A stretch of DNA of 64,000 bases from an uncultured Opitutales bacterium (lineage in GTDB: Bacteria > Verrucomicrobiota > Verrucomicrobiia > Opitutales > CAZQIE01), in assembly GCA_964593675.1 (NCBI GenBank), contig CAZQIE010000006.1, positions 2,449 through 66,448 of the forward strand, in the 5' to 3' direction. The notes beneath the pieces were generated by a model, which was not told the origin of the DNA, made no database searches, and saw only the letters and a program-made list of their open reading frames with translations. Shown in pieces: positions 2,139-54,458 of the stretch; the first letter of the stretch is position 1; every line of letters starts with the position of its first letter. A program made the position numbers and the translations under genes.

Positions 2139-2264
2139 GAGCACTTCAGTTCCAACTTGCCGCACGCGTCACCTCCCTCCCGTACCCGTGCCGACGCGAG
2201 GATGGGGAGGCGCCCACGCTCGCCGCACAGTCGGCTTAAGCGACAACTTAAGGTAGAAGTGCTC
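2139..2264 (+). repeat. copy A of a dispersed ~125-nt repeat with terminal inverted repeats
   Basis: The 5' end GAGCACTTC pairs with the 3' end GAAGTGCTC(TAG). The core GCCGACGCGAGGATGGGGAGGCGCCCACGCTCGCCGCA...CTTAAGCGACAACTTAAGG recurs at 54337..54458 (inverted) and 53604..53731. Confidence 0.75.
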
Positions 2265-2480: not shown

Positions 2481-3470
2481 ATGCCCTCCAACCTCGCCGA
2501 GCTGAACGAAACCGTGAAGAACGCCGCGGCCTGGACCAGCCTCCTTCGCCAGGAAATTGGCCGCGTGATCGTTGGCCAGCAATATCTGGTGGACCGCCTC
2601 ATCGTCGGCCTGCTGGCCAACGGCCATGTCCTGCTCGAAGGCGTGCCCGGCCTCGCCAAGACGCTTTCCGTCAAAACGCTCGCCGGCGCGATCCAGGCCC
2701 AGTTCCAGCGCATCCAGTTTACGCCCGACCTCCTGCCGGCGGACATTGTCGGCACCCTCATCTACAACCCGAAGGACGGCACGTTCCTGACAAAGAAGGG
2801 GCCGGTGTTCGCAAACATCGTGCTCGCGGACGAGATCAACCGCGCCCCCGCGAAGGTCCAAAGCGCCCTGCTCGAAGCCATGCAGGAGCGGCAGGTCACG
2901 CTGGGTGACGAAACGCATAAACTGCCGGAGCCGTTCCTCGTGCTGGCGACGGAAAACCCGATCGACCAGGAAGGCACCTACCCGCTGCCCGAGGCCCAGG
3001 TTGACCGCTTCATGTTCAAGCTCGTCGTCAGTTACCCGAGCCGACAGGAGGAGCGGAAAATTCTCGACGCCATGGCTTCCACCGCGCCCAACACCGATGT
3101 GCGGCCGGTCATCAGCCCGCGCGACATCCTGGAGGCCCGCCGTGTCGTCGACTCCATCTACGTGGACGACAAGATCAAGGACTACATCGTGGACGTCGTC
3201 CTGGCCACGCGCCAACCCAGCCGCTACAACGTTAAGCTCGATCACGCCGTGCAGTTCGGCGCCTCACCCCGCGCGACCATCGCGCTCATGCTGGCCGCAA
3301 AAGCCTGGGCCTTCCTCAATGGACGGGGCTTCGTGACGCCGCAGGACGTGAAGACCATCGGGCTCGACGTGCTCCGCCACCGCGTGATCATCACGTACGA
3401 GGCAGAAGCCGAAAACCTGACGAGCGAGGATGTCGTCAAGCGCGTGTTCGACACGCTCCCCGTGCCGTAG
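2481..3470 (+). CDS. moxR: MoxR-family AAA+ ATPase
   Basis: 329 aa with Walker A LLEGVPGLAKT and Walker B VLADEINRA. It is the first gene of a Bat-type operon. Confidence 0.95.
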   Translation: MPSNLAELNETVKNAAAWTSLLRQEIGRVIVGQQYLVDRLIVGLLANGHVLLEGVPGLAKTLSVKTLAGAIQAQFQRIQFTPDLLPADIVGTLIYNPKDGTFLTKKGPVFANIVLADEINRAPAKVQSALLEAMQERQVTLGDETHKLPEPFLVLATENPIDQEGTYPLPEAQVDRFMFKLVVSYPSRQEERKILDAMASTAPNTDVRPVISPRDILEARRVVDSIYVDDKIKDYIVDVVLATRQPSRYNVKLDHAVQFGASPRATIALMLAAKAWAFLNGRGFVTPQDVKTIGLDVLRHRVIITYEAEAENLTSEDVVKRVFDTLPVP

Positions 3471-3522
3471 TGAGATTCCGGATACACGGAACTAGTTTCA
3501 CCCATTCCTATCGCTTCCGCCC

Positions 3523-4455
3523 ATGGACCAGTCTGAGCTTACGCGCCAGATCCTGAAGAAAGTCCGGCAGGTCGAAATCCGCACAAACCGGCTGGCGGCG
3601 GAAGCTTTGTCCGGGTCCTACCACAGCGTGTTCAAGGGGCAGGGGCTGCATTTTGAGGAAGTCCGCGAATACGCACCGGGCGATGACGTCCGCAGCATTG
3701 ATTGGAATGTCACGGCAAAGATGGACCGGCCGTTTGTGAAGAAATTCCGCGAGGAACGCGAACTCACGCTCATGCTCGTTGTTGACGTCAGCGGCTCCGG
3801 CGCGTTCGGCTCGGCAGACCAGAGCAAGCGGGAACTCGCCGCCGAGCTGGCAAGCGTCCTGGCCTTTTCCGCGACGCGCAACAACGACAAGGTCGGCCTG
3901 TGCCTGTTTACCGACCGCGTGGAGCAGTTCATGCCGCCGCGCAAAGGGCGCAGTCACGTGCTTCGCGTGATCCGCGAAGTCCTGTTCCACGAGCCCCAAG
4001 GTGTGGGCACAAATATCTCCGCCGCGCTGGACCACGTGAACCGCATTCTCAAGCGCCGAGCCGTCGTGTTCCTGCTATCCGATTTCCTCCAGGTCCTCGA
4101 CGGCAAGCTGCCGGTCCCCGGCACGCCAGCCGGCCAGGCGCTATTCCAGGCGCTCGCGCTGACGAACCGGCGTCACGACCTCATAACAGCCGTGTTGTCT
4201 GATCCGCGTGAACTCGAGCTCCCGGAGGTCGGGCTCCTCACGCTTGAGGACGCGGAAACGGGCCAGGTCGTGGAAGTCGACACCTCGACCCCGTCCGTGC
4301 GCAGGCGCTATGCGGAGCAGAACAAGCGCCGACAGGCGGAACTGCGGCGCGGCTTGCGGCAGGCTGGCGTCGACGTGCTCGAGCTTTCCACCGACGCCCC
4401 CTACGTCCTGCCACTCCGCCAATTTTTCGAAAACCGGGCGAAACGTTTCCGATGA
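3523..4455 (+). CDS. DUF58 (vWA-like) protein
   Basis: 310 aa. The motif REYAPGDDVRSIDW is typical of the DUF58 partners of MoxR. The stop overlaps the next start (ATGA). Confidence 0.9.
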   Translation: MDQSELTRQILKKVRQVEIRTNRLAAEALSGSYHSVFKGQGLHFEEVREYAPGDDVRSIDWNVTAKMDRPFVKKFREERELTLMLVVDVSGSGAFGSADQSKRELAAELASVLAFSATRNNDKVGLCLFTDRVEQFMPPRKGRSHVLRVIREVLFHEPQGVGTNISAALDHVNRILKRRAVVFLLSDFLQVLDGKLPVPGTPAGQALFQALALTNRRHDLITAVLSDPRELELPEVGLLTLEDAETGQVVEVDTSTPSVRRRYAEQNKRRQAELRRGLRQAGVDVLELSTDAPYVLPLRQFFENRAKRFR

Positions 4456-5129
4456 CCCGCCGCCGCTCCAGTCTTCGTGTCGCTCTCCTTTGGCTGGCGC
4501 TCGTTCTTCCAGCCGCGGGCCAGCTCATCATCCCTCAAGGGCCCCCGCCAGCGGGCGGACCTGCGGTCGCGCCAGCCGCCGCCCAACCGGTGCCGACGCA
4601 ACAGGAACCGGAAGACGACATCCGCGACATACGCGAGCCCATCCCGCGCACGTTCTGGGAACGCCATGGCCTGGCCGTTTCCGTCGGCTCGGTTGTCGCG
4701 CTTGCGCTTGCAGGGCTGCTTGCGCGGCGGCTCCTGCGCCGTAAGCCCGTCTCCCCGCCGAGCCCCTACGAAATCGCCCGTCGCGAGCTTGAGGCCGCCA
4801 AGGTACTTTGCACGCAGGGCGCTGACGAGGCTCTTGCCCGGGCGTTGTCGGATGCGGTCAGGCGGTATTTGGAAAATGGATACCAGTTGCCCGCGCCCGA
4901 GCGCACGACTGAGGAGTTTTTGGAAGCCCTCGCGCGTGAGTCCCGTTTGCCGAGCGACGCCGCCCGCCTCTTGGGCGAGTTTCTCGCAGCCTGCGACCTC
5001 GCCAAGTTCGCACGCCATGCGTTCCACGACGCCGAACGTGGCGAGCTTTACGCGCGTGCCGTCCGCTTCGTCGATGAGGCCGAGCGGGCCCGCCAGCCCG
5101 TTCACGACGGGAAAGGAGGGGCCTCATGA
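4452..5129 (+). CDS. DUF4381-like membrane protein of the Bat operon
   Basis: 225 aa with a signal/TM segment, a Pro-rich spacer, a second TM and a helical C-terminus. It is ATGA-coupled on both sides and sits in the position usually held by DUF4381 in Bat operons. Confidence 0.7.
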   Translation: MTRRRSSLRVALLWLALVLPAAGQLIIPQGPPPAGGPAVAPAAAQPVPTQQEPEDDIRDIREPIPRTFWERHGLAVSVGSVVALALAGLLARRLLRRKPVSPPSPYEIARRELEAAKVLCTQGADEALARALSDAVRRYLENGYQLPAPERTTEEFLEALARESRLPSDAARLLGEFLAACDLAKFARHAFHDAERGELYARAVRFVDEAERARQPVHDGKGGAS

Positions 5130-6169
5130 ACCTGCTCGGCGGCTTCGAATTCGCGTTTCCACAGGCGCTCTGGCTGCTCCTGCTCCTGCCTGTCCTTGCG
5201 GTGCTCCGCGGGCGCCAGGGACGCCTTGCGGCCGTGCGGTTTTCCAGCACCGCGGTCGCGCGGGAAGTCAGCGGGGTTTCGCGCTCAAGGGCGGGACATT
5301 TCCTGTTCGCATTACGCCTGTTCGCGCTGGCGCTTCTCATTGTCGGACTGGCTCGCCCGCGCCTTGGCCAGGGGCAATCCGATGTCGAGTCGAGTGGCAT
5401 AGATATCGTGCTCGCGGTCGATGTCTCCGGGTCCATGGCCGCGCTGGACTTTTCGGATAACCGCCCACTCACGCGCATCGACGCACTCAAAGTGGTTCTC
5501 GAGGACTTTATACGGAAGCGCAAAAGCGACCGCCTCGGCCTCGTAACTTTCGCCACGCAACCGTACCTCGTGAGCCCGCTCACGCTGAACCACGACTGGC
5601 TCCTCCAGAACCTGCGGCGCATTGACATCGGCCTCATCGACGGTAGCCGCACGGCCATCGGGTCGGCGCTCGGAGTCGCCGTGAACCGGCTGCGCGACCT
5701 CAAGGACGCGAAGAGCCGGGTCGTGGTCCTGCTGACTGATGGCGAGAACAACGCGGGCCGGATAAGCCCCGTGGCTGCGGCGGAAGCGGCGGCAGCCTAT
5801 GGCGTGAGGGTGTACGCGATCGCCGCGGGCAAGTCGGGCCGCGTGATGGTCGCGCAGACGGACCGTGCCGGGCGTGTCCTACGGGATTCGCGTGGTCAGC
5901 CGGTACAGGGTGGCTACGCGGAAACCGGCATTGATGAAAAGACGTTGCAGGAAGTGGCGCGTCTCACCAACGGCCGCTTCTTCCGGGCCGAGGACGCAGG
6001 TTCCCTCGCACGGATTTACGACGAGATCGACAGGCTGGAGCGCACAGAAGTTAAACTCCGCCACTACACGAATTACACGGAACTTTTCTGGGTGCCCGCA
6101 GTCCTCGCACTCACTCTGCTCGGGCTTGAGCAACTGCTGGCCAACACGCGGTACAGGAGGCTGCCATGA
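5126..6169 (+). CDS. batA: BatA-like vWA-domain membrane protein
   Basis: 347 aa with an N-terminal TM (FEFAFPQALWLLLLLP), a vWA MIDAS motif (VDVSGSM) and a C-terminal TM. Confidence 0.9.
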   Translation: MNLLGGFEFAFPQALWLLLLLPVLAVLRGRQGRLAAVRFSSTAVAREVSGVSRSRAGHFLFALRLFALALLIVGLARPRLGQGQSDVESSGIDIVLAVDVSGSMAALDFSDNRPLTRIDALKVVLEDFIRKRKSDRLGLVTFATQPYLVSPLTLNHDWLLQNLRRIDIGLIDGSRTAIGSALGVAVNRLRDLKDAKSRVVVLLTDGENNAGRISPVAAAEAAAAYGVRVYAIAAGKSGRVMVAQTDRAGRVLRDSRGQPVQGGYAETGIDEKTLQEVARLTNGRFFRAEDAGSLARIYDEIDRLERTEVKLRHYTNYTELFWVPAVLALTLLGLEQLLANTRYRRLP

Positions 6170-8283
6170 CCTTCGAGTATCCCATACTGCTCTATCTTTC
6201 CCCAGTCGTCGCCGTGCTGCTCGCGCTGTTTTTTCGCTGGAGTTCGCGGACGCGCGCGCGGCTGCTGGAGCGGTTTGCGGCGTCGCGGCTGCTCCCGGGG
6301 CTGCTGGCCTCCCATAGCCCTGCGATGCGTGCCGTAAAGCACGGTTGCGTGGTGACGGCTGTGCTCCTGATCGTTCTCGCTTTGGCGCGGCCGCAAGTCG
6401 GCTACGAGTGGCGCGAGGTCACCACACGGGGTGTGGATGTCGTGTTTGCCGTGGATGCGTCTCGAAGCATGTTAGCCGAGGACGTCCGTCCGAACCGCCT
6501 CGAGCGTGTGCGCCTGGCGGTGTTCGACCTCCTCCCGCGGCTGAAGGGTGACCGTATCGGGCTCGTCGCCTTTGCGGGAACCTCGTTCCTGCAATGCCCG
6601 CTCACGCTAGACTACGACGCGTTCCGGCAATCACTCGAGGCCGTGGACACCCAGGTCATACCGCAAGGCGGAACAAACATTGGCGCGGCCATCCGTGAGG
6701 CTGTCGAGGCGCTCGGGCCGGGGCAGAATCACAAGGCTGTCGTGCTGCTTACGGATGGCGAGGATCTCGAAGAATCGGCCGTCGAGGCCGCTCGTGAAGC
6801 GGCAAAGGCAGGCGTGGCAGTCTTCACGGTCGGTGTGGGCACCCCGGACGGTGAGCTCATACCCGTGCGGAACGAACGCGGGCAGATTGAGTATGTGCGC
6901 GATGTCGCAGGCCAGATTGTTAAGAGCCGTCTTGACGAGGCCACGCTTCGACGGGTGGCCGAGGCCGCCGGCGGTTTCTATGTTGGCCTTGGCGCCCGGG
7001 GTGAGGGGCTTCAGCAGGCCTATCAGGCTGGCGTCGAGGCTTTGCCTAAGGAGGAGAGCGGGTCCCGCCTTCAGCGCCAGCCCCTGGAACGTTTCCAGTG
7101 GCCCCTGGCTGTGGCGATTGGCCTCCTTGCGCTGGAATCTTTGCTCGGGACGCGCCGGTGGGAGTCACGTCCGCGCCTGGGGCGGTGGTTTGCCCGCGCG
7201 GCCTTGGTGGCGGCCGCGCTAGGCCTCGCTGCGACGGTAGCCCGCGCGGCGGCGCCGGAGGAGGCTCTTCTGTTGTATCAGGAAGGCAAATACGAGGAGG
7301 CCGGTTCGGCTTTTTCAGGCCAGGCAAAGGCCAACCCGAAGGACGCCCGTTTCCCCTACAACGCCGGGGCCAGCCTCTATAGGGCAGGCGACTATAAAGG
7401 CGCCGCCGAGGCCTTTAGCCAGGCTTTGTCGTCCGCAGACTTGTCTTTGCAGCAGAAGGCGTTCTACAACCTCGGCAACGCGCTTTACCGGCAGGGTGTG
7501 GAAGCAAAAAAGGCATCGCCCAAGGAGGCGCTTACGCAGTGGGAAGCGGCACTGAAGTCCTACGACAACGCCCTGGATCTGAAGCGCGACGACGTGGACT
7601 CCAAATATAACCGCGACCTCGTTCAGCGCCGGATTGAAGCGCTCAAGCGTGAGCTGGAGCGGCAGGAAAAGGCCCAAGACGGGCAGGGCGGTGAAAACAA
7701 GGACAAGCAGGACTCGAAGAACGAGGAATCCAAAAATTCGGGAAAGGACTCCCAGAAAGACCAGCAGAAGGGCGGGGGACAGGACGAGGCCCAGAAGGAT
7801 TCGCAGCAAGGGGACAAAGGGAAATCCGGCAATTCGGCGGCGCAGAAGGACAACCAGCCCGGGCAGGGTGAGCCTCAGGAATCCCCGGAAAAATCGGGAG
7901 CACAATCTGGAAAAGACGAAAAGAAACCGGAGGGCGCAGATGAGAACAAGAGTCCCGACAGTCAGTCTGATAAAGACAAACAGGCGCAGAAAGGGCGGGA
8001 GCCTCAGGCCTCTGATAAGCAACAGCCCGCCGCCGGGGCCGACCGGAAAGAGGAGTCCGGGAAGGACGGACAAAAAGGCAAGGGAGATGCCGAGGCTGCC
8101 GCGAAGGCCGCTCAGGAAGCGGGTTCGGAGGCGGATGGCGGGCGTACGGCCGTGGGCGTGATGACCCGGCAGGAAGCTCGACAAATCCTGGAAAGCCTGC
8201 GATCCATGGAACGCAAACTTCCTGTCGTTGCGCCCCGTGTCCTGCCGAGGGCAGAAGGCGACGAAACTCGAAAGGACTGGTGA
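6166..8283 (+). CDS. batB: BatB/BatC-like fusion: vWA domain, TPR repeats and a long charged low-complexity tail
   Basis: 705 aa. It has an N-terminal TM, a vWA domain (VDASRSM), a central TM, TPR-like repeats (YNAGASLYRAGDYKGAAEAF, YNLGNALYRQG) and about 170 aa of K/D/E/Q/G/S-rich sequence. Confidence 0.85.
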   Translation: MTFEYPILLYLSPVVAVLLALFFRWSSRTRARLLERFAASRLLPGLLASHSPAMRAVKHGCVVTAVLLIVLALARPQVGYEWREVTTRGVDVVFAVDASRSMLAEDVRPNRLERVRLAVFDLLPRLKGDRIGLVAFAGTSFLQCPLTLDYDAFRQSLEAVDTQVIPQGGTNIGAAIREAVEALGPGQNHKAVVLLTDGEDLEESAVEAAREAAKAGVAVFTVGVGTPDGELIPVRNERGQIEYVRDVAGQIVKSRLDEATLRRVAEAAGGFYVGLGARGEGLQQAYQAGVEALPKEESGSRLQRQPLERFQWPLAVAIGLLALESLLGTRRWESRPRLGRWFARAALVAAALGLAATVARAAAPEEALLLYQEGKYEEAGSAFSGQAKANPKDARFPYNAGASLYRAGDYKGAAEAFSQALSSADLSLQQKAFYNLGNALYRQGVEAKKASPKEALTQWEAALKSYDNALDLKRDDVDSKYNRDLVQRRIEALKRELERQEKAQDGQGGENKDKQDSKNEESKNSGKDSQKDQQKGGGQDEAQKDSQQGDKGKSGNSAAQKDNQPGQGEPQESPEKSGAQSGKDEKKPEGADENKSPDSQSDKDKQAQKGREPQASDKQQPAAGADRKEESGKDGQKGKGDAEAAAKAAQEAGSEADGGRTAVGVMTRQEARQILESLRSMERKLPVVAPRVLPRAEGDETRKDW

Positions 8284-10094
8284 TGAAGGCGCTGGCTTCC
8301 GCAATCACGATTTTGTGCGCCCTCGTGGTGATGATCCCGCAGGCGCTGGGCGATGCACTGGTTACAAGCCAGTTTGACCCACCGACGATAGCCGCCGGGC
8401 AAGCCTCACGCTACGTGGTGCAGGTCCGTGGGACCACCGGGTCGGTCGCTTTTTCGCCACCGGCAGCGCCGGGGCTCGTTTTCGAGGGCACGCAGCAGTC
8501 GCAGCGTACCTCGATCATCAACGGAAAGGTGCAACACGAGCTGACGCTGGTGTCGCGCGTGCGCGCCGCCCAGCCAGGAAAGTTCACGGTCCCCGGCCAC
8601 AGCCTGCGCGTGGGCGGCGAGATGCTCAACGTTCCGCCCGCGGTCCTGCAAGTTGTGCCGGCGGATCAGGCGCCGAAACAGCCTGAGGATCCGGCGCTGG
8701 CGGCGCTTTCCGGCAGTATGCCGCAGCTCACGCTCGCGCTTCAGCAGGAAAAGATTTACGTCGGGCAGACAGTGCCGGTCAGCGTCACGCTGGTTTTTCC
8801 GTCCTGGGTGGAAGGGCGCCTTGAGCGGCAAGCTCCGGAGCAGGTCGGCGACGCCTTTTCGATGGGAACGCTTTCGGATGAGCCTGTCCGCGACGCCGTA
8901 AACCTCGGAGGGCGGCAGTACCAGAAACTGACGTGGGCATCGCTTCTCACGCCGCTTAAGGCCGGGAAATACCCCTTGTCCTTCAAGCTGGGAGTTATCG
9001 TGCTCGTTCCCAGATCGGACGACTTCCCAGGGGGCAATTTCCCTGGCGGCTTTTTCGGGAACGTGTTCGCAGAACAGCGGCAGTTGCCGCTATCTACACC
9101 CGCGCGCGAGATTGAAGTCCTGCCGTTGCCGGAACAAGGAAAGCCCGCGACCTACTCGGGTGCCATCGGTCACTTCACCCTCTCAGCCCCCGCGCTTTCA
9201 GCGACGCGGCTTGAGGTCGGCGAGCCCGTGACCGTAACGCTCTCTGTGACCGGGCGCGGCAACTTTGACCTGATCGAGCCGCCTCCCGTGCCAGCAAACC
9301 CGCTCTGGAAAACGTACGCGCCCAAAGCGACCTTCAAAGCCGCCGACGCCCACGGCAACAGTGGCACGAAAACGTTCGAGTACGTGCTCGTGCCCATGAG
9401 CGAGCAGGCGGACGCAGTACCGGAAATCCGGTTCAGCTACTTCGACCCGGAGAAATCCCGCTATGAGACGCTGGTGGCCGCGCGCACGCCCGTGCGGGTG
9501 CTTGCCCCGACGGTGCCGGGTGGCGGGAGGCCCGCACCAAGCCACACAGCCGTCACACCGGTCCAACGCGACCCCGCGGCCGCGCCGGTGGAGCTGCTCC
9601 CGATCCGGCTGCAGCCGGGGCGTACGGTCGACCGGCTCGCCCCGGTCTTTACTAAGCCCCTGTTCTGGCTCGTACAGGCGGGCGCGTTGCTGGCCGTGGT
9701 TGCGCTCGCGTTCCTGGGCCGCTGGTGTACCCGCTGGCGAGACGACAAGGCGCTTCGCGGACGCAGGGAGGCCCAGCGCGTCCTGGCCGCGGCCATCTCT
9801 GGCGCGCGTGACGCCGCGGCACGCCACGACATTGAAGCGTTTTTCGGTGCGGCCCGACGTGCCATACAGGCGGCAGCCTGGCACGAGGACGGCGCTCCCA
9901 AAGAGGCTCTTGCCGGTGACGAACTTCTGGCGTGGCTGGAGCAGCGCGGCACCCCGGCGCCAGCTTTGGAAAGTGCCCGCGCGCTGCTCGCGGAAGCCGA
10001 TGCTGCCCAGTATGGCGGCGTTACCGTCGCGCAACCCCAAGACAGCCTGCGGCGGCTTGAGCTGCTCGTGGCATCGCTGAGGACACGTTCATGA
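8283..10094 (+). CDS. batD: BatD-like oxygen-tolerance family protein
   Basis: About 603 aa with a signal peptide, repeated beta-rich modules and a C-terminal TM followed by a helical region. The ATG at 8283 overlaps the batB stop (TGATG). The ORF track starts 3 nt earlier at a GTG. Confidence 0.8.
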   Translation: MKALASAITILCALVVMIPQALGDALVTSQFDPPTIAAGQASRYVVQVRGTTGSVAFSPPAAPGLVFEGTQQSQRTSIINGKVQHELTLVSRVRAAQPGKFTVPGHSLRVGGEMLNVPPAVLQVVPADQAPKQPEDPALAALSGSMPQLTLALQQEKIYVGQTVPVSVTLVFPSWVEGRLERQAPEQVGDAFSMGTLSDEPVRDAVNLGGRQYQKLTWASLLTPLKAGKYPLSFKLGVIVLVPRSDDFPGGNFPGGFFGNVFAEQRQLPLSTPAREIEVLPLPEQGKPATYSGAIGHFTLSAPALSATRLEVGEPVTVTLSVTGRGNFDLIEPPPVPANPLWKTYAPKATFKAADAHGNSGTKTFEYVLVPMSEQADAVPEIRFSYFDPEKSRYETLVAARTPVRVLAPTVPGGGRPAPSHTAVTPVQRDPAAAPVELLPIRLQPGRTVDRLAPVFTKPLFWLVQAGALLAVVALAFLGRWCTRWRDDKALRGRREAQRVLAAAISGARDAAARHDIEAFFGAARRAIQAAAWHEDGAPKEALAGDELLAWLEQRGTPAPALESARALLAEADAAQYGGVTVAQPQDSLRRLELLVASLRTRS

Positions 10095-10840
10095 AACTTT
10101 CCAACCTCACCCGCTTTTTCTGTGTCCTGGGCCTGCTCGTCCTCGGCATGGTGGACGCATGCGCTCAGGAGCCTGCGTTCCGGGACGCATTTACCCGCGG
10201 AAACGATGCGTATTCATCGGGCAAATACACGGAGGCCCTGGACGCCTACCGCGAAGCGCTGAAGCAACTCCAGAGTGCCGGCGTGCACCAGAACATCGCG
10301 TCCGCCTATCAGAAAGCAGGGGACGTTGGCAGGGCGGTCCTGCATTACGAGCGCGCACTCGCCCTCGAGCCCGCAAATGCGGACGCCCGTGCAAACCTGG
10401 TCGCCGTACGGAAGGCGGCCGGCCTCCCTGAAGAGAAAATCGGGGTGCTTGAGCGCCTAGCCTACATGATGCCGGCTGACGGCTGGGCCTGGTGCGCCGC
10501 CGTGGCCTTCTGGGGCGTCCTGGCTCCCGTTGTGCTGGCGCGGGCCTGGAAGCTGCGCGGTGCCTGGCCGACCTGCCTTGCCGCTTTTTGTGCCCTGGCG
10601 CTGGCCGTCTGCGTTCTTGGGCTTCTCGGCTGGCACATGGCAGGTGCCCGGGGGATCATCCTGAAGGACACCGCCTTGAAGGTTTCGCCAACCGAAAACA
10701 GCCCAGCCGTGGCACCGCTTGCCGCGGGCGAGTCCGCGAGCATCCAGGAGCACCATGAGGCTTACTTCCTCGTGCGCCTGCCAAACGGCCGTGAAGGTTG
10801 GCTGGAAGCCCGCGTGTTCGAGCCTGTATGGTCCCGCTGA
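10091..10840 (+). CDS. batE: BatE-like TPR plus SH3b-domain membrane protein
   Basis: 249 aa with a signal peptide, TPR repeats (YSSGKYTEALDAYREAL, AYQKAGDVGRAVLHYERALAL), TM segments and a C-terminal SH3b-like segment (YFLVRLPNGREGWLEARVFEPVW). Confidence 0.75.
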   Translation: MKLSNLTRFFCVLGLLVLGMVDACAQEPAFRDAFTRGNDAYSSGKYTEALDAYREALKQLQSAGVHQNIASAYQKAGDVGRAVLHYERALALEPANADARANLVAVRKAAGLPEEKIGVLERLAYMMPADGWAWCAAVAFWGVLAPVVLARAWKLRGAWPTCLAAFCALALAVCVLGLLGWHMAGARGIILKDTALKVSPTENSPAVAPLAAGESASIQEHHEAYFLVRLPNGREGWLEARVFEPVWSR

Positions 10841-12459: not shown

Positions 12460-12559
12460 AAAAGGCCAGGCACCCTACGGCACACGCAGATCCTGGTTAC
12501 CGTTGCTCCCTTCCGGGCCTGGCGGGGTTCACCGGTCCAGCGTTGCATAGGACCCGGCC
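12460..12559 (-). ncRNA. ffs: signal recognition particle RNA (small 4.5S type)
   Basis: The reverse strand reads GGCCGGGUCCUAUGCAACGCUGGACCGGUGAACCCCGCCAGGCCCGGAAGGGAGCAACGGUAACCAGGAUCUGCGUGUGCCGUAGGGUGCCUGGCC followed by UUUUU. It has the conserved domain IV (CCAGGCCCGGAAGGGAGCA with a GGAA tetraloop). The GCAACGCU and GCGUGUGCCG segments resemble E. coli 4.5S RNA, and the ends pair with each other. Confidence 0.88.
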
Positions 12560-18461: not shown

Positions 18462-19229
18462 ATGCCCTTTTTCCCGGCTATAACGCCAGCGCAGGTTCCC
18501 AAGATGGGGCGCGAGCCGCTTTCGCCACAGGCGAAGCGGGAGGTCTGGGCGCGGCTGAAGGCGGGTGGGGTGGGGGGGGGGGTGGGGGCGGGGCGGGGGG
18601 GGGGGGGGGGGGGGGGGGCGCCGGGGCACGGCGGCGAACCGCTGTGGGGCACGGGCGTCCCGTCCGTGGATGAGGCGGGCGGGGGCGGGTTGCCGCGGGG
18701 CGCGCTTTCGGAGGTTGTGGCCGGCGGCCCGGGAGGGCGCGGCGGGCAATCGTTCCTCCTCCGGCTGCTGGAAGCTGCGGCGCGGGCGCTGGCGTATGCT
18801 GCGCTGGTGGACGGTGCCGAGACTTTTGACCCGCAGTCGGCCCCGGTGGGTCCGCTCAAACACCTGCTCTGGGTGCGGTGTGGCGGAAGCCCGACTCGTG
18901 CCCTGCAGGCGGCGGACTTGCTGCTGCGCGATGAAAATTTTGCGCTCGTGGCGGTGGACCTGCGCGGGTGCGCAGAGCGCGAACTCCGGCGCATCGCGGC
19001 GACGGCATGGCACCGGCTCCAGCGGGTCGCGGAGGAAAGCGGCTCGATCGGCGTGGTCTTTTCCACGCACGCGCAGGTGCCCAGCGCCGCCCTGCGCCTC
19101 GAACTCACATCACGACTGACCCTGAACCTGCTCGATGCGACCGGGGACGCGGTCACACACGCCTTGGGCGTCCACGTGCTGCGACGTCGCGGTAACTTTA
19201 GGGACGGGCAGGAGGCGCGCGCGGGATAA
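18462..19229 (+). CDS. imuA: ImuA-like (RecA-fold) component of the imuA-imuB-dnaE2 mutagenesis cassette
   Basis: 255 aa. The motif TGVPSVDEAGGGGLPRGALSEVV matches the ImuA signature (tG...lD..L.GGlprG.l.E.). The gene sits immediately upstream of imuB and dnaE2 and contains an in-frame poly-Gly stretch encoded by the G tract. Confidence 0.75.
   Translation: MPFFPAITPAQVPKMGREPLSPQAKREVWARLKAGGVGGGVGAGRGGGGGGGAPGHGGEPLWGTGVPSVDEAGGGGLPRGALSEVVAGGPGGRGGQSFLLRLLEAAARALAYAALVDGAETFDPQSAPVGPLKHLLWVRCGGSPTRALQAADLLLRDENFALVAVDLRGCAERELRRIAATAWHRLQRVAEESGSIGVVFSTHAQVPSAALRLELTSRLTLNLLDATGDAVTHALGVHVLRRRGNFRDGQEARAG
18563..18618 (+). repeat. near-pure G tract (G4,G11,G5,G4,G24) inside imuA
   Basis: My direct count gives an uninterrupted G24 run at 18595-18618 and a G11 run at 18572-18582. 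Only 5 non-G bases occur in 56 nt. Confidence 0.95.
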
Positions 19230-19377: not shown

Positions 19378-20847
19378 ATGATGAAATTCGCCGCCATTTA
19401 TGCGCCGCACTTCCCGCTTCAGGCTGTGCTGAGGCTGGAGGCGGGGTTGCGGCAGGTGCCCGTGGCCTTGCTGGAAGAAGCCAGCCGCACGGCCCGGGTC
19501 ACCGCGCTTACGGACTCAGCCCGGGCCGCCGGGGTGCGGGAGGGCATGACGGCCGCGCAGGCGGCGGGGCGTTGTCCCGGTCTCGCCGCGCGCTTGCGCT
19601 CCGCCGAAGCCGAGGCCGCCGCGGCGCGCGTATTACTGGCGGGGGCGCTCACCGTGTCTCCCCGCGTGGAAGTCACCGCTCCGGGCGTGTGTACGGTCTC
19701 TCTCGCGGGCTTGCCCGAGGGTGCGCCGGAAAGGCTCACGAAGAAGGCGCTCGGCCGGCTCGCGGGCGTAGGGCTTTCAGTCCGCGCGGGGTTGGCAACC
19801 TCCGCCGGGCTCGCCCGCCAGGCTGCCCGGGTGGCCGCGCCGCTGCTTGTCGTCGCGGATGTCCCCGCCTTTCTTGCCGCACTCCCCATTGCTCGCATGG
19901 GCGCCTCGGCGGACCTTCTAGAAGTCCTGCATGCCTGGGGGCTGCACACCCTGGGGGCGCTCGCCGCGCTGCCCCGCGACGACGTTGCCCAGCGCCTTGG
20001 CGACGAAGCGCTGGCATTGTGGGACGACGCGCACGGGCAAGACCGCCGCCCTCTGACTCATGCGGCGCTCCCTGATGATTTTGAGGAGACGCTCGAACTG
20101 GAAGACCCGGTCGAGACGCTTGAGCCGCTCCTCTTCCTCCTGCGCCGGATGCTCGGGGCGCTCGTCCTGCGCCTGCAGGCCGCCTACCGCGTCGCTGCGG
20201 ACCTCAGCCTCACCCTGCGCCTCGACAGCGGCCCGCCCCACGAGCGCAGTTTCCGCCTGCCAGAGCCGACCGCGCAACCCGACCTCTTGCTCCGCGTGCT
20301 GCACGCGCATCTGGAGCAGGTCCGCACGGATGCGCCTGTCGTGGCGCTGCGCCTGCGCGTGGAGCCCGCACCCCTCCAGTTCCGCCAACAGGGCCTGTTC
20401 GAGACGGCGCTCAAAAATCCGGCGCGCCTGCAGGAAACGCTCGACCGGCTGACTGGCCTGGTTGGCTCGCAGAACGCCGGGTGTCCCCGGGCTCTGCCGA
20501 CGCGAAGGCCCGACGCGTTCACGTTGGAACCGTTGGCCGATGCCGCCGCTTCAGCCGCCCCCGAAGCCGGCCTTCCCCCGGGTCTGGCGCTGCGCCGCCT
20601 GCGCCCACCCGCGCCCGCACGGGTCCGCGCCGAAGCCGAGGCCCCGCCAACCCGCCTGGAAAGCGCCGTTGCGAGCGGCACCATTTGCGACACCCGCGGC
20701 CCCTGGCATGTCTCTGGGGACTGGTGGCTCCCGCCAGCCCAGTCCTGGAGCCGCACCGAGTGGGACGCCGCGCTTGAAGACGGCGTCCTTCTGCGCCTCG
20801 TGCATACGCCCAACGGGCAATGGTGGGTGGAGGGCTTTTATGACTGA
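19378..20847 (+). CDS. imuB: ImuB, Y-family polymerase-like protein
   Basis: 489 aa. The N-terminus MMKFAAIYAPHFPLQAVLRLE is typical of ImuB. The stop overlaps the dnaE2 start. Confidence 0.85.
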   Translation: MMKFAAIYAPHFPLQAVLRLEAGLRQVPVALLEEASRTARVTALTDSARAAGVREGMTAAQAAGRCPGLAARLRSAEAEAAAARVLLAGALTVSPRVEVTAPGVCTVSLAGLPEGAPERLTKKALGRLAGVGLSVRAGLATSAGLARQAARVAAPLLVVADVPAFLAALPIARMGASADLLEVLHAWGLHTLGALAALPRDDVAQRLGDEALALWDDAHGQDRRPLTHAALPDDFEETLELEDPVETLEPLLFLLRRMLGALVLRLQAAYRVAADLSLTLRLDSGPPHERSFRLPEPTAQPDLLLRVLHAHLEQVRTDAPVVALRLRVEPAPLQFRQQGLFETALKNPARLQETLDRLTGLVGSQNAGCPRALPTRRPDAFTLEPLADAAASAAPEAGLPPGLALRRLRPPAPARVRAEAEAPPTRLESAVASGTICDTRGPWHVSGDWWLPPAQSWSRTEWDAALEDGVLLRLVHTPNGQWWVEGFYD

Positions 20848-24091: not shown

Positions 24092-24174
24092 TGCCCGGGA
24101 TGGGGGTCGAACCCACACGGCCTTACGGCCAGCGGATTTTAAGTCCGCAGCGTCTGCCATTCCGCCACCCGGGC
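24092..24174 (-). tRNA. tRNA-Leu (anticodon TAA)
   Basis: The reverse strand reads GCCCGGGTGGCGGAATGGCAGACGCTGCGGACTTAAAATCCGCTGGCCGTAAGGCCGTGTGGGTTCGACCCCCATCCCGGGCA. It has a 7-bp acceptor stem, the anticodon loop CTTAAAA, a long variable arm and a T-loop. Confidence 0.9.
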
Positions 24175-24239: not shown

Positions 24240-24350
24240 GGTGCGTTCATGGGGCGCCCGAAAGCCTGTGCAAGCCGATGGGCCGTGCAGCCGAAAAAAA
24301 CGGCCCGCGCGGTGCGTGGTCGCCGCAGCGTCGCAAGCGACACTTTAACG
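24240..24350 (+). repeat. partial or rearranged copy (D) of the dispersed repeat
   Basis: CATGGGGCGCCC ... TCGCCGCAGCGTCGCAAGCGACACTTTAA matches the core and 3' arm of copies A and B. An internal hairpin GGGCCG..AAAAAAA..CGGCCC is inserted. The 3' end overlaps the stop codon of the LacI gene on the opposite strand. Confidence 0.5.
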
Positions 24351-25472
24351 CGAGAAATTGTCCTGGCTTCCGGCTTCTTTGGCTGGGGCTGCGGCGTCCG
24401 CGGCTGCTCGCACCGTCGAGCCCTCGCGCCAGCGGGATTTGATCAGGACCTGTTTGGGAACTTTGGGAGCGCCGCGCTCGTTGCGCTCGATGGCTGCTGC
24501 GGCGAGTTCGATGCCGGTGCGTCCGAGGTCGGCCTCCGCGGGCTCGATTCCCGCCCAATCCACTTCAAGCGGCCCGAGCGATGGATGCACGAGCCCGATT
24601 TCTTCGGGTATGCGTAGGCCCAGATTCTTTAGCCAGGAAAAGGGCTCGTAAAGGCAGGTCACGAGCACATCCGGACGCTGTTGCTGGATCCACGCCGCAA
24701 ACTCGCTCTGACCGGCGGGTTCGGGGTAGGTCACCAGCGTGGGGCGGTCGAGCCGTTCGGGGAACCGTTCAGATGCGGTCATGAAGGCGGCCCGAAAGGT
24801 GGTATCACTAGCGCGGTCATGCCATGGTGTGGTAAAAAATGCGGGGCGCCTATAGCCACGTGCGAGCAAGGCTTCCATCAGCCGGTGCATGTTCCCGAAG
24901 TCGTCATAGGCGGCCTGGGTGTACTCGTAACGCAGGTGCGGCAACTTTCCAAACAGGCTCGTATTGCGCAGGCCTTGCTGCCGCCTGAGAACGACGACCG
25001 CCCGCTCGCCCCAGTCCATCGCGGCCAGCACGCCCGTTATGGTTCCACCCAGCACGATGCCAAGGATGCCTCGGGCGTCCAGAATGCGGAGGGCTGCGGC
25101 CAGATTTGCTTCTGTCGGATTCTTCCTGAGAAAGGCGAGGTCTATGCGGTCAAGGCTGTAACCGAGTTGTTGAGCCCGCTCGCTTGAGCCCCTCCACAGC
25201 TCTTTTCCCTCGTCCAGGTGCCACTGTTCGGGCGAGTCCATATCGGTTATCCAACCGATGGTGCCGCGGAACGCGCTCCTTTTGCGGCTGCGGACGGCCG
25301 CTTGATACGCCGATATCAGCGGGTTGGCGACGTAGCCCATTTCCTTTGCGACCTTCTCGATCTTTGCGCGAGTCGCGGGCGCAACCCGTGGGTCGCCTTT
25401 CAGCGCGAGGTGCACGGTGTTGTGGCCGACGCCGGCCTTCGCCGCAATTTCTCTAAGGGTAGGCTGGGGCAT
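24345..25472 (-). CDS. LacI-family transcriptional regulator
   Basis: 375 aa with an N-terminal HTH (TLREIAAKAGVGHNTVHLALKG) followed by a periplasmic-binding-protein-like fold. Confidence 0.85.
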   Translation of the reverse strand: MPQPTLREIAAKAGVGHNTVHLALKGDPRVAPATRAKIEKVAKEMGYVANPLISAYQAAVRSRKRSAFRGTIGWITDMDSPEQWHLDEGKELWRGSSERAQQLGYSLDRIDLAFLRKNPTEANLAAALRILDARGILGIVLGGTITGVLAAMDWGERAVVVLRRQQGLRNTSLFGKLPHLRYEYTQAAYDDFGNMHRLMEALLARGYRRPAFFTTPWHDRASDTTFRAAFMTASERFPERLDRPTLVTYPEPAGQSEFAAWIQQQRPDVLVTCLYEPFSWLKNLGLRIPEEIGLVHPSLGPLEVDWAGIEPAEADLGRTGIELAAAAIERNERGAPKVPKQVLIKSRWREGSTVRAAADAAAPAKEAGSQDNFSR

Positions 25473-31072: not shown

Positions 31073-31148
31073 TGGAGCCGGGGGTGGGACTCGAACCCAC
31101 GACCTACTGATTACAAATCAGTTGCTCTGCCAACTGAGCTAACCCGGC
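31073..31148 (-). tRNA. tRNA-Thr (anticodon TGT)
   Basis: The reverse strand reads GCCGGGTTAGCTCAGTTGGCAGAGCAACTGATTTGTAATCAGTAGGTCGTGGGTTCGAGTCCCACCCCCGGCTCCA. It has the anticodon loop TTTGTAA and an encoded CCA. There is one mismatch at the base of the acceptor stem. Confidence 0.85.
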
Positions 31149-41632: not shown

Positions 41633-42688
41633 ATGCTCTTCATCCTGCTCGTCATCCTGACGGCTCTCGTATTCGAGTTCATCAACGGGTTTCACGATAC
41701 CGCGAACTCGATCGCGACAGTCGTCTCGACAAAGGTGCTGTCGCCCCGGAAGGCCGTCGTGATGGCTGCCGTCTTCAACCTGCTCGGAGCGTTGGCGGGC
41801 ACCGCGGTTGCCTCAACGATCGGAAAGGGCCTGGTCGACACCTCGTTCGTCACGACCACCGTCATCCTGAACGGCCTGCTCGCGGGCATAGTCTGGAATC
41901 TCATCACCTGGTGGCTCGGCCTGCCCTCCAGCTCCAGTCATGCGCTCACCGGTGGCCTCTGCGGTGCCACGGTCGGCGCAGCGGGTAACTGGTCGGTCAT
42001 CATCTGGGAACGCTTCAACCCGGCCAAGAACATGCCCGAGGGCCTTCTCCCGAAGGTCGTCTACCCCATGTTCATCTCCCCGGTCTGCGGCCTCATCGCC
42101 GGGTTCATCGTGATGGGCATCCTCCTTTACATCCTGCGGAAGACCCGCCCGGTCGTCGTCAACCAGTGGTTCGGCCGCCTGCAACTCGGCAGCGCTTCGT
42201 GGATGGCCTTCAGCCACGGCATGAACGACGCGCAGAAGACGATGGGCATCATCACGCTCGCCCTTTTCACCGCCACGGTTTCGGGCTCCTTTGAAGGCAT
42301 GCCCGCCTGGTTGGACTTCCTTCGCGTGCCCGAGTTCAAGGGCGTGCCGCTCTGGGTGAAGATCGCCTGCGCCATCACCATGGGCGCGGGAACAGCCGCC
42401 GGCGGCTGGCGCATTATCCGCACACTCGGTCACCGCATGGTTAAGCTGCAGCCCGTCCACGGCTTTGCGGCGGAAACAGCCGCTGCGGCGATCATTCAGG
42501 TCGCCAGCCACTGGGGCATCCCGCTCTCCACCACCCACGTCATCTCCAGCTCCATCATGGGCGTCGGCGCGACCAAGCGCCTCAACGCCGTACGCTGGGG
42601 CGTGGTGGAGCGCATGTTATGGACCTGGGTGCTCACGATCCCCGCCACCGCCCTGCTCGGCTACCTCCTGCAGCGGATCTTCGGCTAG
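41633..42688 (+). CDS. pitA: inorganic phosphate transporter, PiT (PHO4) family
   Basis: 351 aa with the repeated GFHDTANSIATVVS and SHGMNDAQKTMG signatures. Confidence 0.92.
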   Translation: MLFILLVILTALVFEFINGFHDTANSIATVVSTKVLSPRKAVVMAAVFNLLGALAGTAVASTIGKGLVDTSFVTTTVILNGLLAGIVWNLITWWLGLPSSSSHALTGGLCGATVGAAGNWSVIIWERFNPAKNMPEGLLPKVVYPMFISPVCGLIAGFIVMGILLYILRKTRPVVVNQWFGRLQLGSASWMAFSHGMNDAQKTMGIITLALFTATVSGSFEGMPAWLDFLRVPEFKGVPLWVKIACAITMGAGTAAGGWRIIRTLGHRMVKLQPVHGFAAETAAAAIIQVASHWGIPLSTTHVISSSIMGVGATKRLNAVRWGVVERMLWTWVLTIPATALLGYLLQRIFG

Positions 42689-42843
42689 AGCACATTCAGT
42701 TCAAGTTTTCGCATCTGTTGGATACCCCTCCTTCCTCGACGCCGACCTAGCGCACTTCTACTTTAAGCTGTCGCACCGCCTTAAATCACTTTTCCGCCCT
42801 CGCCTCCGCCCTCCTGTGGCTGTAACCCATATGTCGATTGGCC
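42688..42843. repeat. composite copies (G/H) of the dispersed repeat filling a convergent spacer
   Basis: GAGCACATTCAGTTCAAGTT...CCCCTCCTTCCTCGACGCCGAC matches the 5' half of copy A. It is followed by CTAGCGCACTTCTACTTTAAGCTGTCGCACCGCC, which matches the reverse complement of the copy A/B 3' arm. Confidence 0.6.
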
Positions 42844-44019
42844 CTAGCGCGTCACGGTTTCCGCAGGCACCGCGTTTTCCGCAAGTGCCTTCACGGTACG
42901 CAGGATTTCCAGCGGATGGCCCTGGGGAAGCGCTTTCCGCATGGCTTCACGCTGGGCCTCCAGCGCGCCGGGACTTTCCATCCAGGCTTTCACAAGGCGC
43001 GGGAGTTGACCGGGACGCTTCATGACCGCACCCAGCCCATGTGCCCGGGAAAACTTCACGGTAATCCACTCTTGCGGCATAATCCCGCCCAGCCCGTTGA
43101 AAATGATGGGCGTGGTGCTCAGGATAGCCTCGCTCGTCGTGCCTGTCCCCGGTCGCGCGACGATCGCGGAAGCTGCGGCCATGACCTCGTTCATTCGGGT
43201 CGTGTAACCGAGCGGCCTCGCGGGCAATTTCGGGTGCGCCTTTGCCCAGGCGTCAACCGCTGCGTAGGCTGCGGCGTCTTTACCGCACAGGCAGACCACC
43301 TGCGGCATCACGCCGGCATCGTGGAGCTTCTGCAGCAGCGGGAGGTGGTTGTTGGCACCATTGGCCCCCGTGGCAAGAACAAGCGTGAACCTGTCAGGCT
43401 CCAGCCGCAGCTCCTCCACAAGAAAGCGCCGTCGCGCCTCGGGCGACACGGGCTCGTAGAAGTTCGGGTTCAGCAAAAAGCCGCCCACCCGCGCGCGCCC
43501 GGCGGGCACGCCAAACCGCCGCGCCGTTTCCGCGCATTCCTCTACCGCCCCGATGAACAGATCGCACGCCGGGTTCACCCAGTGATGGCTGAACCCATAA
43601 CCGCCGAACAGCTCCCCGCAATACGTCGCACACCTCACCGGCGCCGGTGCCAGCGCCTCCCGGGCAGCCTCGAAAAAACCGTGGTTCAGGTGATCATGCG
43701 TGCTCAAGATCACGTCCGGCTTGAGCTCGCGGACGCGTTCCATGAAGGCGGCCCTGCCCAGAATGCCCTTTGAACCGCAGAACGGCACCCACTCCAGCAC
43801 GTTGAAATACACATGATGGAGCGCCGGCCATACGCGCTGGATCCAGTTATAGATCCCCACGCCAAAGTCGTAAACCGGGTGGGTGTTCTCGAGCGCCTGG
43901 TGCAGCGTGACCTCCAACCCGAGCTCGCGCGCGGACGGGTGTTCGGCCCAAGCCTTGAACGAGCGGGCACGCATATCATGGCCGCCGCCGGTACTGGAGG
44001 TGAGGACGAGGACGCGCAT
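42844..44019 (-). CDS. MGDG-synthase-like (GT28) diacylglycerol glycosyltransferase
   Basis: 391 aa starting MRVLVLTSSTGGGHDMRA. The C-terminal region (RPGTGTTSEAI) looks like GT28. I trimmed the start from the track ORF (44094). Confidence 0.8.
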   Translation of the reverse strand: MRVLVLTSSTGGGHDMRARSFKAWAEHPSARELGLEVTLHQALENTHPVYDFGVGIYNWIQRVWPALHHVYFNVLEWVPFCGSKGILGRAAFMERVRELKPDVILSTHDHLNHGFFEAAREALAPAPVRCATYCGELFGGYGFSHHWVNPACDLFIGAVEECAETARRFGVPAGRARVGGFLLNPNFYEPVSPEARRRFLVEELRLEPDRFTLVLATGANGANNHLPLLQKLHDAGVMPQVVCLCGKDAAAYAAVDAWAKAHPKLPARPLGYTTRMNEVMAAASAIVARPGTGTTSEAILSTTPIIFNGLGGIMPQEWITVKFSRAHGLGAVMKRPGQLPRLVKAWMESPGALEAQREAMRKALPQGHPLEILRTVKALAENAVPAETVTR

Positions 44020-50863: not shown

Positions 50864-51174
50864 TTCGCCGCGCTGGCGCGCGCCCGCCGACGTTTTTCGC
50901 ACTTTCGCAAACTCCCACCCATGGCGGGTTGAGGCTTCCGACGCACGCGCAGCCCCAGATGCCCCCGGACACCGGGAATCGGGCTCCTTGCCGTGACGCT
51001 GTTCCAGACGGGAACGGCGTAAAGTGTACCAGAGAACCGTAAGCGGGTGCGCCCAGCGCGCCGCGCCGGCGGGTTGCCGCCTTTTGTCCGGCGGTGCACC
51101 CCCGGTTTCAGTCGCAGAGGAAGGATAAAAGAAGCCCCCTCGTTGGACTCCCCTTTAAAAGCACAGAAGAAGAC

Positions 51175-53603: not shown

Positions 53604-53731
53604 TGCACGGCCAGTTCCAGTCTAAGGTCCCCCAAAATCCGATACACCGAGCTGGCCCACCCCGAGGCGACGATGGGGCGTACACGCTCGCCGCAGCGCC
53701 GGCGCAAACGGCGTCTTCACGCGAAATGCTC
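53604..53731 (+). repeat. copy C of the dispersed repeat
   Basis: TGCACGGCCAGTTCCAGTCT ... GACGATGGGGCGTACACGCTCGCCGCAGC ... GAAATGCTC aligns with copies A and B (boxes CAGTTCCA, GATGGGG, CACGCTCGCCGCA and the 3' GAARTGCTC). Its length is similar to theirs. Confidence 0.6.
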
Positions 53732-53920
53732 GCCTGCCGGGATACCTGGCTTAGCGCCCGCTTTAGTCCCTCGGGTATGCGCCGATTTCCGCCCTCGAAG
53801 CTCCTGTCCCGTATTTTCCTGATTAACCCCGTAAACTTTCTTGAGTGTCTTGCGGTTTGCTCCAAACTAAACACCAGGTCGTCTCTCAAATCGCCTACTC
53901 GAGGATTTCCGCTCTTTTCC

Positions 53921-54334
53921 GTGAAGATTTCCCTGAAAGTTGAATATGCGTGCCGCGTGCTTGCCCAGCTTGGGCGCCGGTACGGGACGGGTCAGCTCGC
54001 GCACATCGACGAGTTGGCTGAGGCGGAGGAAGTGCCCGCGAATTACCTCGTGCAGATTCTCAACGAGCTGCGCAATGGCGGCCTGATCAACAGCCGACGT
54101 GGAAAACAGGGCGGCTATGCGCTCGCGTTCCGTCCGGCCGACATCACGCTCTACCAGATCATCCGCGTGGTGGATTCCGAGATCCTTGATGGCCGTTTGA
54201 GCGAGGCCGGGCAATCCGGTCCCCGTCTGGCCCGTGTCTGGGGCAACCTGTCAGCTAAGTTCGAGGCCTTTTTGAAGGCCACGACCCTTGAGCATCTGAT
54301 GGCCCGCGACGGTGCCGAGATGTACTACATCTAG
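53921..54334 (+). CDS. Rrf2-family transcriptional regulator
   Basis: 137 aa from a GTG start: (V)KISLKVEYACRVLAQLG...VPANYLVQILNELRNGGLINSRRGKQGGYAL. The upstream part of track ORF 53330..54334 is non-coding. Confidence 0.8.
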   Translation: MKISLKVEYACRVLAQLGRRYGTGQLAHIDELAEAEEVPANYLVQILNELRNGGLINSRRGKQGGYALAFRPADITLYQIIRVVDSEILDGRLSEAGQSGPRLARVWGNLSAKFEAFLKATTLEHLMARDGAEMYYI

Positions 54335-54336
54335 AG

Positions 54337-54458
54337 GGCTCCACTTTAAGTCGTCGCTTACGCCGTAGCTGCGGCGAGCGTGGACGCCCCCATCCTCGCG
54401 TCGGCCCGGGCGAAAGAACGACTCAAGTAGCAGCGACGTCTCTTAAGCATAAGTGCAC
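54337..54458 (-). repeat. copy B of the dispersed repeat (inverted orientation)
   Basis: The reverse complement reads GTGCACTTATGCTTAAG...GCCGACGCGAGGATGGGGGCGTCCACGCTCGCCGCAGCTACGGCGTAAGCGACGACTTAAAGTGGAGCC(CTCTAG). By eye it is 80-90 percent identical to copy A over the roughly 64-nt core. Confidence 0.75.

Follow-up and report, generated by a model that had tools for sequence, protein, structure and literature searches.

Bacterial MITEs are small elements that carry terminal repeats, end in TA and fold into a rod, a description that the family reported here matches in size, repeats and fold and, at four of its eight ends, in TA (PMC2229807). Among them is RUP, a 107-bp pneumococcal MITE for which IS630-Spn1 is the proposed mobiliser (PMC2229807). 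IS630-family elements insert at TA and duplicate it (PMC2170065); for IS630, a preference for TA within 5'-CTAG-3' is given there and in the title of its reference to Tenzen & Ohtsubo 1991. Palindromic repeats described from bacteria include the CGTC REPs, with stems of 8–9 bp that start with AT, loops of 4–5 nt and a CCA tail (PMC3733652).

Could a repeat that recurs behind genes of an uncultured Opitutales bacterium belong with such elements? Here we analyse the copies of this repeat in a 64,000-nt stretch of its DNA, referred to as the window, and conclude that an old, lineage-specific MITE which targets the TA within CTAG and is moved in trans is the probable, though by no means certain, origin of the family.

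Results

A repeat family at five loci

The window contains a non-coding repeat family of about 125 nt, represented by three full and three partial copies at five loci that span 52 kb, in both orientations (Table 1). Pairwise BLAST aligns copies A and B with 82% identity over 83 nt (E 9e-16), B and C with 80% over 64 nt (E 4e-10) and A and C with 72% over 74 nt (E 1e-6). These values are the independent measure of relatedness, since the nhmmer profile was built from A, B and C and their E-values in Table 1 are self-matches. A repeat scan likewise found the interior of A again, inverted at 54340–54391 (81% over 52 nt) and direct at 53677–53717. Partial copy E1 aligns locally with the 5' half of A, up to GCCGAC; the alignment scores 16, where 300 shuffles reached 13 at best. 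The arm of E2 differs from the 3' arm of A by one mismatch in the 26 specified positions of a 28-nt pattern.

The first-pass annotation of this DNA had reported the element at 2139–2264 with GAGCACTTC as its 5' end, GAAGTGCTC as its 3' end and TAG thereafter, which is exact. It had also placed an inverted copy of the interior at 54337..54458 and a diverged copy at 53604..53731; both were found, the former at 54334–54458. Of the two further parts that it listed, the one at 24240..24350 is a real copy with displaced coordinates (fragment D, 24318–24363), and the one at 42688..42843 is a real repeat that resolves into two partial copies, E1 and E2, at 42688–42844. Its estimate of 55 matches in 64 positions (86%) between A and B was slightly generous: by our count, 40 of 49 core positions match, as do 21 of 28 positions of the 3' arm.

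Table 1. Copies of the repeat, their parts and the RNA genes of the window
Feature	Position	Strand	Detail	Neighbouring genes
Copy A, full, 126 nt	2139..2264	+	nhmmer E 2.9e-33	11 nt after glnA terminator; 216 nt upstream of MoxR/Bat operon
Copy A 5' arm GAGCACTTCAGTTCCAACTTGCCGC	2139..2163	+	TG, not TA, precedes
Copy A core, GCCGAC to GTCGGC	2190..2235	+	hairpin GCGAG-GA-TGGG/CCCA-CG-CTCGC and invariant CACGCTCGCCGCA
Copy A 3' arm GCGACAACTTAAGGTAGAAGTGCTC	2240..2264	+	followed by TAG, giving CTAG at 2264–2267
Fragment D, 3' ~45 nt (3' part of core and 3' arm)	24318..24363	+	nhmmer E 0.0026 (24318–24353); arm model E 0.019	tRNA and LacI-family gene
Partial copy E1: A-type 5' arm, C-rich stretch, GCCGAC	42688..42747	+	CTAG 42685–42688 includes PHO4 stop	PHO4 transporter and convergent gene of unknown function (E1 and E2)
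Partial copy E2, core deleted or degenerate	42750..42844	-	between CTAG 42747 and CTAG 42844	as for E1
Copy C, full, most diverged	53604..53731	+	nhmmer E 3e-30	33 nt after pnp terminator; 190 nt upstream of Rrf2
Copy C core; 3' arm	53661..53703; 53708..53731	+	no CTAG at either end
Copy B, full, 125 nt	54334..54458	-	nhmmer E 2.8e-31	convergent Rrf2 (stop 54332–54334) and sigma-54 activator gene (stop 54488–54490)
Copy B 3' arm	54334..54357	-	adjoining CTAG 54331–54334 includes Rrf2 stop codon
Copy B core	54362..54405	-
Copy B tandem 5' arm-like segments	54409..54458	-	B5b 54409–54434 and B5a 54433–54458
SRP RNA and two tRNA genes	12461..12559, 24092..24174, 31076..31148	-	Rfam

Anatomy of the unit

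The unit consists of an arm of about 25 nt, an interior of about 75 nt and an inverted arm of about 25 nt. Eight ends, namely both of A and of B and one each of C, D, E1 and E2, align to a single arm, GAGCACTTCTACnTTAAGnTGTCGC, which reads (CTA)GAGCAC-TTCTACnTTAAGnTGTCGC when written out with its junction; a model of the arm alone recovers these eight sites and no others in the window. The arms of A form a perfect 9-bp inverted repeat, located exactly where the similarity to E1 (at the 5' side) and to B and E2 (at the 3' side) ends. A scan for ungapped inverted repeats of at least 12 nt found none in A or B, so that the arms are imperfect, and no second arm is recognisable in E1 or E2. Terminal inverted repeats, a small size (125–128 nt, against an upper bound of 200–300 bp for the class) and a lack of coding content are properties that the family has in common with bacterial MITEs (PMC2229807).

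Conservation is uneven along the unit. Pairwise identity among A, B and C amounts to 39–52% in the 5' arm, 29–54% in the variable stretch that follows, 76–85% in a 45-nt GC-rich hairpin core and 59–78% in the 3' arm, and the core is better conserved than the rest of the unit (Fisher p 4e-3 to 3e-7). The 5' half as a whole is thus only weakly common to the three copies (29–54%), and the robust repeat is the 3' portion of about 80 nt. Its core is an imperfect 10-bp inverted repeat, GCGAGGATGG..CCACGCTCGC, with invariant blocks, one of them of 13 nt (CACGCTCGCCGCA). The family is modular in make-up: its 5' halves are of three kinds, arms stand in tandem in B and at the E locus, and solo fragments occur; a CCTCCCTCC stretch occurs in A and the E copies and is absent from B and C. 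Within B, segment B5b pairs almost perfectly with the 3' arm to form a rod hairpin of about 100 nt. The full copies have a G+C content of 61–66%, that of the window being 64.3%.

No reading frame is conserved: six-frame translations contain stops, and core indels of 2–3 nt shift the frames between copies. A small protein gene was rejected on these grounds.

CTAG at the junctions

The tetranucleotide CTAG is scarce in the window: it occurs 20 times, about ten-fold below the 210 or so that base composition predicts, while a Markov model predicts 42. As a separate observation, 12 of the 20 fall in spacers or stop codons, which make up roughly 8% of the window, and the corresponding loci of relatives have a similarly low density (0.14–0.6 per kb). 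Arms adjoin four of the 20, those at 2264, 42685, 42747 and 54331, always in the same register; a fifth, at 42844, closes the E locus. Seen from the arms, CTA precedes four of the eight to create the junction CTAG, for which the window's trinucleotide frequencies give a chance of about 1e-7 to 8e-9; for the TA inside it, which flanks four of the eight ends, the chance is about 5e-6. No copy has TA at both sides, the flanks being TG/TA for A, CA/TA for B and neither for C.

Copy junctions account for three of the four C-TAG stop codons that the window has, namely those of PHO4, its convergent neighbour and Rrf2, the second of them, on the minus strand beside E2, being included in the CTAG at 42844. 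The PHO4 and Rrf2 proteins have complete Pfam domains, which indicates that neither was truncated by the adjacent insertion. The sequence of the E locus, C-TA-[G..C]-TA-[G..C]-TA-G, is what repeated insertion into a regenerated CTAG would produce. Removal of both inserts on paper would leave GGCTAGCGCG, in which the convergent genes would have had their stops in one shared palindromic CTAG. CTAG could also be part of the repeated unit and not its target site.

Genes beside the copies

The genes beside the copies are functionally unrelated across the five loci, and the copies are oriented either way relative to them. A and C directly follow strong intrinsic terminators, and B and the E copies fill convergent spacers; the Rrf2 and sigma-54 activator genes that converge on B are without a canonical terminator. 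A 5' leader or riboswitch was rejected because B and E sit between convergent genes. That every copy lies at the 3' end of genes, as had been noted before, holds at all five loci; as a bias it is not statistically demonstrable from one window, in which copies occupy none of 8 divergent and 5 of about 22 other spacers.

Two further peculiarities were noted. Copies C (+) and B (-) form an inverted pair about 600 nt apart around the Rrf2 gene (53604–54458), an arrangement like that of a composite transposon. Three relatives have no Rrf2 gene directly after pnp, and the outer ends of the pair show no target duplication. At the D locus, the arm (24335–24363) provides the final six or so codons of the LacI-family gene at 24345–25472 (-) together with its TAA, which lies in the conserved TTAA(A)G motif of the arm.

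Tests for a structured RNA

At gathering thresholds, Rfam matches in the whole window are the SRP RNA and the two tRNAs of Table 1 and nothing else. A scan of both element loci at E<=10 yielded matches solely to the adjoining terminators and none to the repeat, in agreement with the initial statement that no Rfam family was recognised. The core hairpin proposed at that stage, GCGAG-GA-TGGG/CCCA-CG-CTCGC, can indeed form in A and B. Competing or pseudoknotted helices, also proposed for A, rest on the CCTCCCTCC stretch, which B and C do not have. In the three-copy alignment, none of 18 pairs tested in the core hairpin and terminal stem has changed on both sides, and two core pairs are broken in copy C and left uncompensated, with the proviso that three sequences cannot prove structure absent. 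Folding z-scores in the sense direction are -2.8 for A, -1.2 for B and +0.05 for C; of the three, only A folds better than its shuffles, and the antisense strand does no better overall (A, -3.3). The flanks of the copies are unrelated to one another. Consensus scans of them found no shared promoter or terminator, a result of little weight as the same scans missed the obvious glnA and pnp terminators.

Search for further copies

Is the family found elsewhere? Among genome contigs, the exact pattern of the invariant core gave 30 matches, all in unrelated GC-rich taxa and none extending past the pattern, as expected of chance. A 22-base gapped pattern gave nine chance matches among metagenome contigs, one of them in a coding region. 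Viral contigs had no match to the core or arm pattern, and blastn against a plasmid collection gave none. Nothing at E<=10 was found in the protein database with the concatenated six-frame translation of A and B, used as a query for spurious ORFs over copies. Around glnA or pnp of six relatives, about 120 kb of non-redundant sequence (181 kb fetched) contained no copy; the closest relatives (GlnA 80–82%, PNPase 78–79%) show no synteny downstream of either gene.

Host and gene content of the window

The GlnA of the window has one database match of 100%, the next best being 82%, and the PNPase has a best match of 79%, from which the lineage appears to have been sampled once. The nearest proteins come in both cases from Opitutales/Puniceicoccaceae bacteria, in line with the Opitutae origin that had been guessed from the letters alone. 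Pfam scans of about 47 predicted window proteins found no transposase, integrase or Y1 domain, which bears out the earlier remark that the window has no transposase.

Several observations on the genes stand apart from the repeat. The PNPase (51094–53499) has no identical or near-identical entry in the protein database, although the GlnA has one of 100%; either the source assembly is seemingly represented in part in the protein collection, or the gene was called differently. The enzyme ends in a DRG/RGD repeat tail of about 55 residues (53321–53496), encoded by repeats with 9/12-nt periodicity. The PNPases of relatives measure between about 710 and 909 aa, which suggests that the group typically has a C-terminal tail of low complexity that varies from one member to another. 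Downstream of copy A, 2481–10840 holds an operon of the aerotolerance 'Bat' type with MoxR, DUF58, VWA/BatA, VWA-TPR, BatD and TPR genes. A nearly pure G run of about 60 nt at 18560–18626 lies within an ORF without Pfam match (18462–19229), upstream of imuB-like (19378–20847) and dnaE2-like (20462–24058) genes. The run may be an artefact of sequencing or assembly, or else a tract prone to slippage in a mutagenesis cassette.

Discussion

What kind of element leaves copies directly behind unrelated genes? We favour a MITE. The arm common to eight ends, the CTAG and TA junctions in excess of chance, the lack of coding capacity and the dispersed, truncated and mosaic copies in both orientations support this reading. 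The unit, which starts with G and ends with C, would insert at the TA of a CTAG, and with the TA duplicated each junction would again be a CTAG. The transposase would be encoded elsewhere in the genome, act in trans and belong to the cut-and-paste type of IS630/Tc1-mariner; some elements of the IS5 group behave similarly towards their targets. With CTAG scarce and its survivors concentrated in spacers and C-TAG stops, copies would land right behind genes and leave the stops intact. The analysis shows the repeat family, its common arms, their association with CTAG, the missing coding capacity and the want of a match to known RNA families; transposition, the transposase family and any effect on transcripts we infer. 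The copies in the window are, to judge by their sequences, old, being 72–82% identical and in part truncated, tandem or mosaic.

Against a MITE stand the lack of a transposase in the window or linked to the arms, the one-armed E1 and E2 and the lack of any copy with TA at both sides. The core (76–85%) also exceeds the arms (39–78%) in conservation, when a MITE constrained by its transposase normally has arms more conserved than its interior, and most described bacterial MITEs are AT-rich. The searches of genome, metagenome, viral and plasmid sequences and of the six relatives, which gave no copy outside the window, count on the same side.

High G+C, a core better conserved than the arms, the missing two-sided TA and the single arms of E1 and E2 keep alive a rival that we consider unlikely, namely a REP/BIME- or RIME-like mosaic whose palindromic modules were spread by an HUH/Y1 transposase (RAYT/TIRYT) or by recombination and not by a DDE transposase. 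The best-conserved part is an internal imperfect palindrome and not the termini, and the modular copies with tandem arms in B and at the E locus, three 5' halves and solo fragments would be in keeping. For Opitutus terrae, which belongs to the same class, a high enrichment in GTAG REPs is reported, and Y1-linked repeat families with terminal inverted repeats have been described (PMC3733652); in the window, the 3' arms of A, E2 and B contain GTAG or GTGG. However, neither GTAG nor CGTC is found as a tag at a fixed position next to the core: the aligned letters are GTAG in B, ACTG in A and GGCG in C, and CGTC is shifted. Stem and loop differ in their dimensions from those of CGTC REPs, the unit measures 125 nt and not 20–40 nt, no Y1 transposase is encoded in the window, and an inverted pair of arms flanked by TA or CTAG is typical of DDE elements. 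Paralogous small RNAs or cis-acting RNA elements, with the 45-nt hairpin core as their functional part, we hold to be decidedly improbable. A core conserved at 76–85% with 13 invariant nucleotides, the GCGAG-GA-UGGG/CCCA-CG-CUCGC hairpin of A and B, the better-than-shuffled folding of A on either strand (z -2.8 sense, -3.3 antisense) and CCUCC-rich, anti-Shine-Dalgarno-like stretches in A and the E copies would suit such RNAs. The C-rich stretch is nevertheless absent from B and C, which also fold like shuffles (z -1.2 and +0.05), and C breaks two core pairs; none of the 18 pairs is compensated, Rfam is silent at E<=10, the admittedly weak scans found no promoter- or terminator-like element common to the flanks, the orientation to neighbouring genes is mixed, and some copies are truncated or mosaic. 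The first-pass annotation had left open a MITE/REP-like element or a family of structured RNAs; arms, CTAG, dispersal and lack of coding content uphold its MITE-like half, and the want of an Rfam match and of compensation leaves the other unsupported.

Selection in spacers for a DNA site, the palindrome GCGAGGATGG..CCACGCTCGC being bound by a regulator or nucleoid protein, would account for an imperfect 10-bp inverted repeat with invariant blocks, conserved above its surroundings. It leaves the 125-nt unit, the terminal repeats and the CTAG junctions unexplained, the adjacent genes are functionally unrelated and, at two of the five loci, they converge on the copies, so that a promoter would not be expected there; we therefore rate it as very unlikely. 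Chance similarity or a single local duplication, to which the distance of just 600 nt between B and C might point, deserves practically no credence: it is refuted by the repeat scan, by BLAST E-values down to 9e-16 and by the E2 arm at 42.7 kb, which nearly equals that of A, and the copies occupy five loci, with A 51 kb away from B and C.

Two other classes of repeat were considered and set aside. An integron attC site has the architecture R''/L''...L'/R' with core sites RYYYAAC and GTTRRRY and lies behind gene cassettes near an integrase. On inspection the arms lack this core-site consensus, the neighbours are housekeeping genes and the window has no integrase. Repeats of a diversity-generating retroelement were rejected as the mismatches are not adenine-specific and a reverse transcriptase is lacking.

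Speculatively, and with low expectation, we consider that the core hairpin GCCGAC-GCGAGGATGG...CCACGCTCGC-CGCAG..CGGC may be kept by selection as a functional module riding on mobile arms and, separately, that the C/B pair may have mobilised Rrf2 as a MITE-flanked composite. Behind genes, such a core module might now serve the host as an element that ends transcripts in both directions or stabilises RNA, or as a binding site for a protein. The rod of about 100 nt formed by B could likewise act as a 3'-end barrier or stabiliser for two convergent genes.

With this family, a well-known kind of element gains one more example; it does not represent a novel kind of RNA, and general concepts are left unchanged. 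The family would add a MITE-type family to the Opitutales (Verrucomicrobiota), for whose repeats a literature search gave just short GTAG REPs. In a genome depleted of CTAG, a preference for CTAG/TA would steer insertions to the first bases past stop codons and keep the stops, so that the position of copies at the 3' end of genes becomes explicable without a function. Annotators should mask the units, which could otherwise be miscalled as sRNAs or small ORFs, and the repeats may break assemblies of this lineage.

Comparison with known elements

RUP shares with the Opitutales family a length of about 100–125 nt, the lack of coding content, an intergenic position, TA termini (at four of eight ends in the Opitutales family), stop codons in the arms and a contiguous terminal repeat of 9 bp (copy A), and mobilisation in trans by a TA-inserting IS630-family transposase is implied in both. 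The link of RUP to its insertion sequence is the similarity of its terminal repeats to IS630-Spn1, for which no counterpart is known in the Opitutales family. RUP copies are highly similar, implying recent activity, whereas those of the Opitutales are 72–82% identical and partly decayed, and RUP has no especially conserved internal core.

The Correia or NEMIS elements of Neisseria resemble the family in their length of 100–160 nt, terminal inverted repeats of about 24–26 bp, TA termini (again at four of eight ends) and conserved interior, in the long stem-loop of their transcript and in a location beside genes whose expression can be affected (PMC2229807, PMC2649163). Unlike the Opitutales family, in which neither was detected, Correia elements have an IHF site and promoter-creating ends; there is no sequence similarity, and the Opitutales family is GC-rich and tied to CTAG, not just to TA. 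The IS630 family (IS630, ISY100) and Tc1-mariner elements would share the duplication of TA and, for IS630, the preference for TA in 5'-CTAG-3', but they are autonomous elements of about 1.1 kb that encode a DDE transposase, and the window contains nothing alike.

ERIC/IRU (127 bp, enterobacteria) and BIME/RIME are similar in size, imperfect palindrome, intergenic position, modular or truncated variants and conserved centre, and their co-transcribed position downstream of genes is counted as a further likeness. They come from another phylum and have no sequence similarity to the family; the terminal repeats of ERIC are of 7 bp, and BIMEs are composed of 35-nt REPs with GTAG tags, which the Opitutales family does not have. 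The family most resembles RUP, Correia and other elements mobilised by IS630 (PMC2229807). What stands out most is its link to CTAG and stop codons, a possible reason for the position of copies right behind genes.
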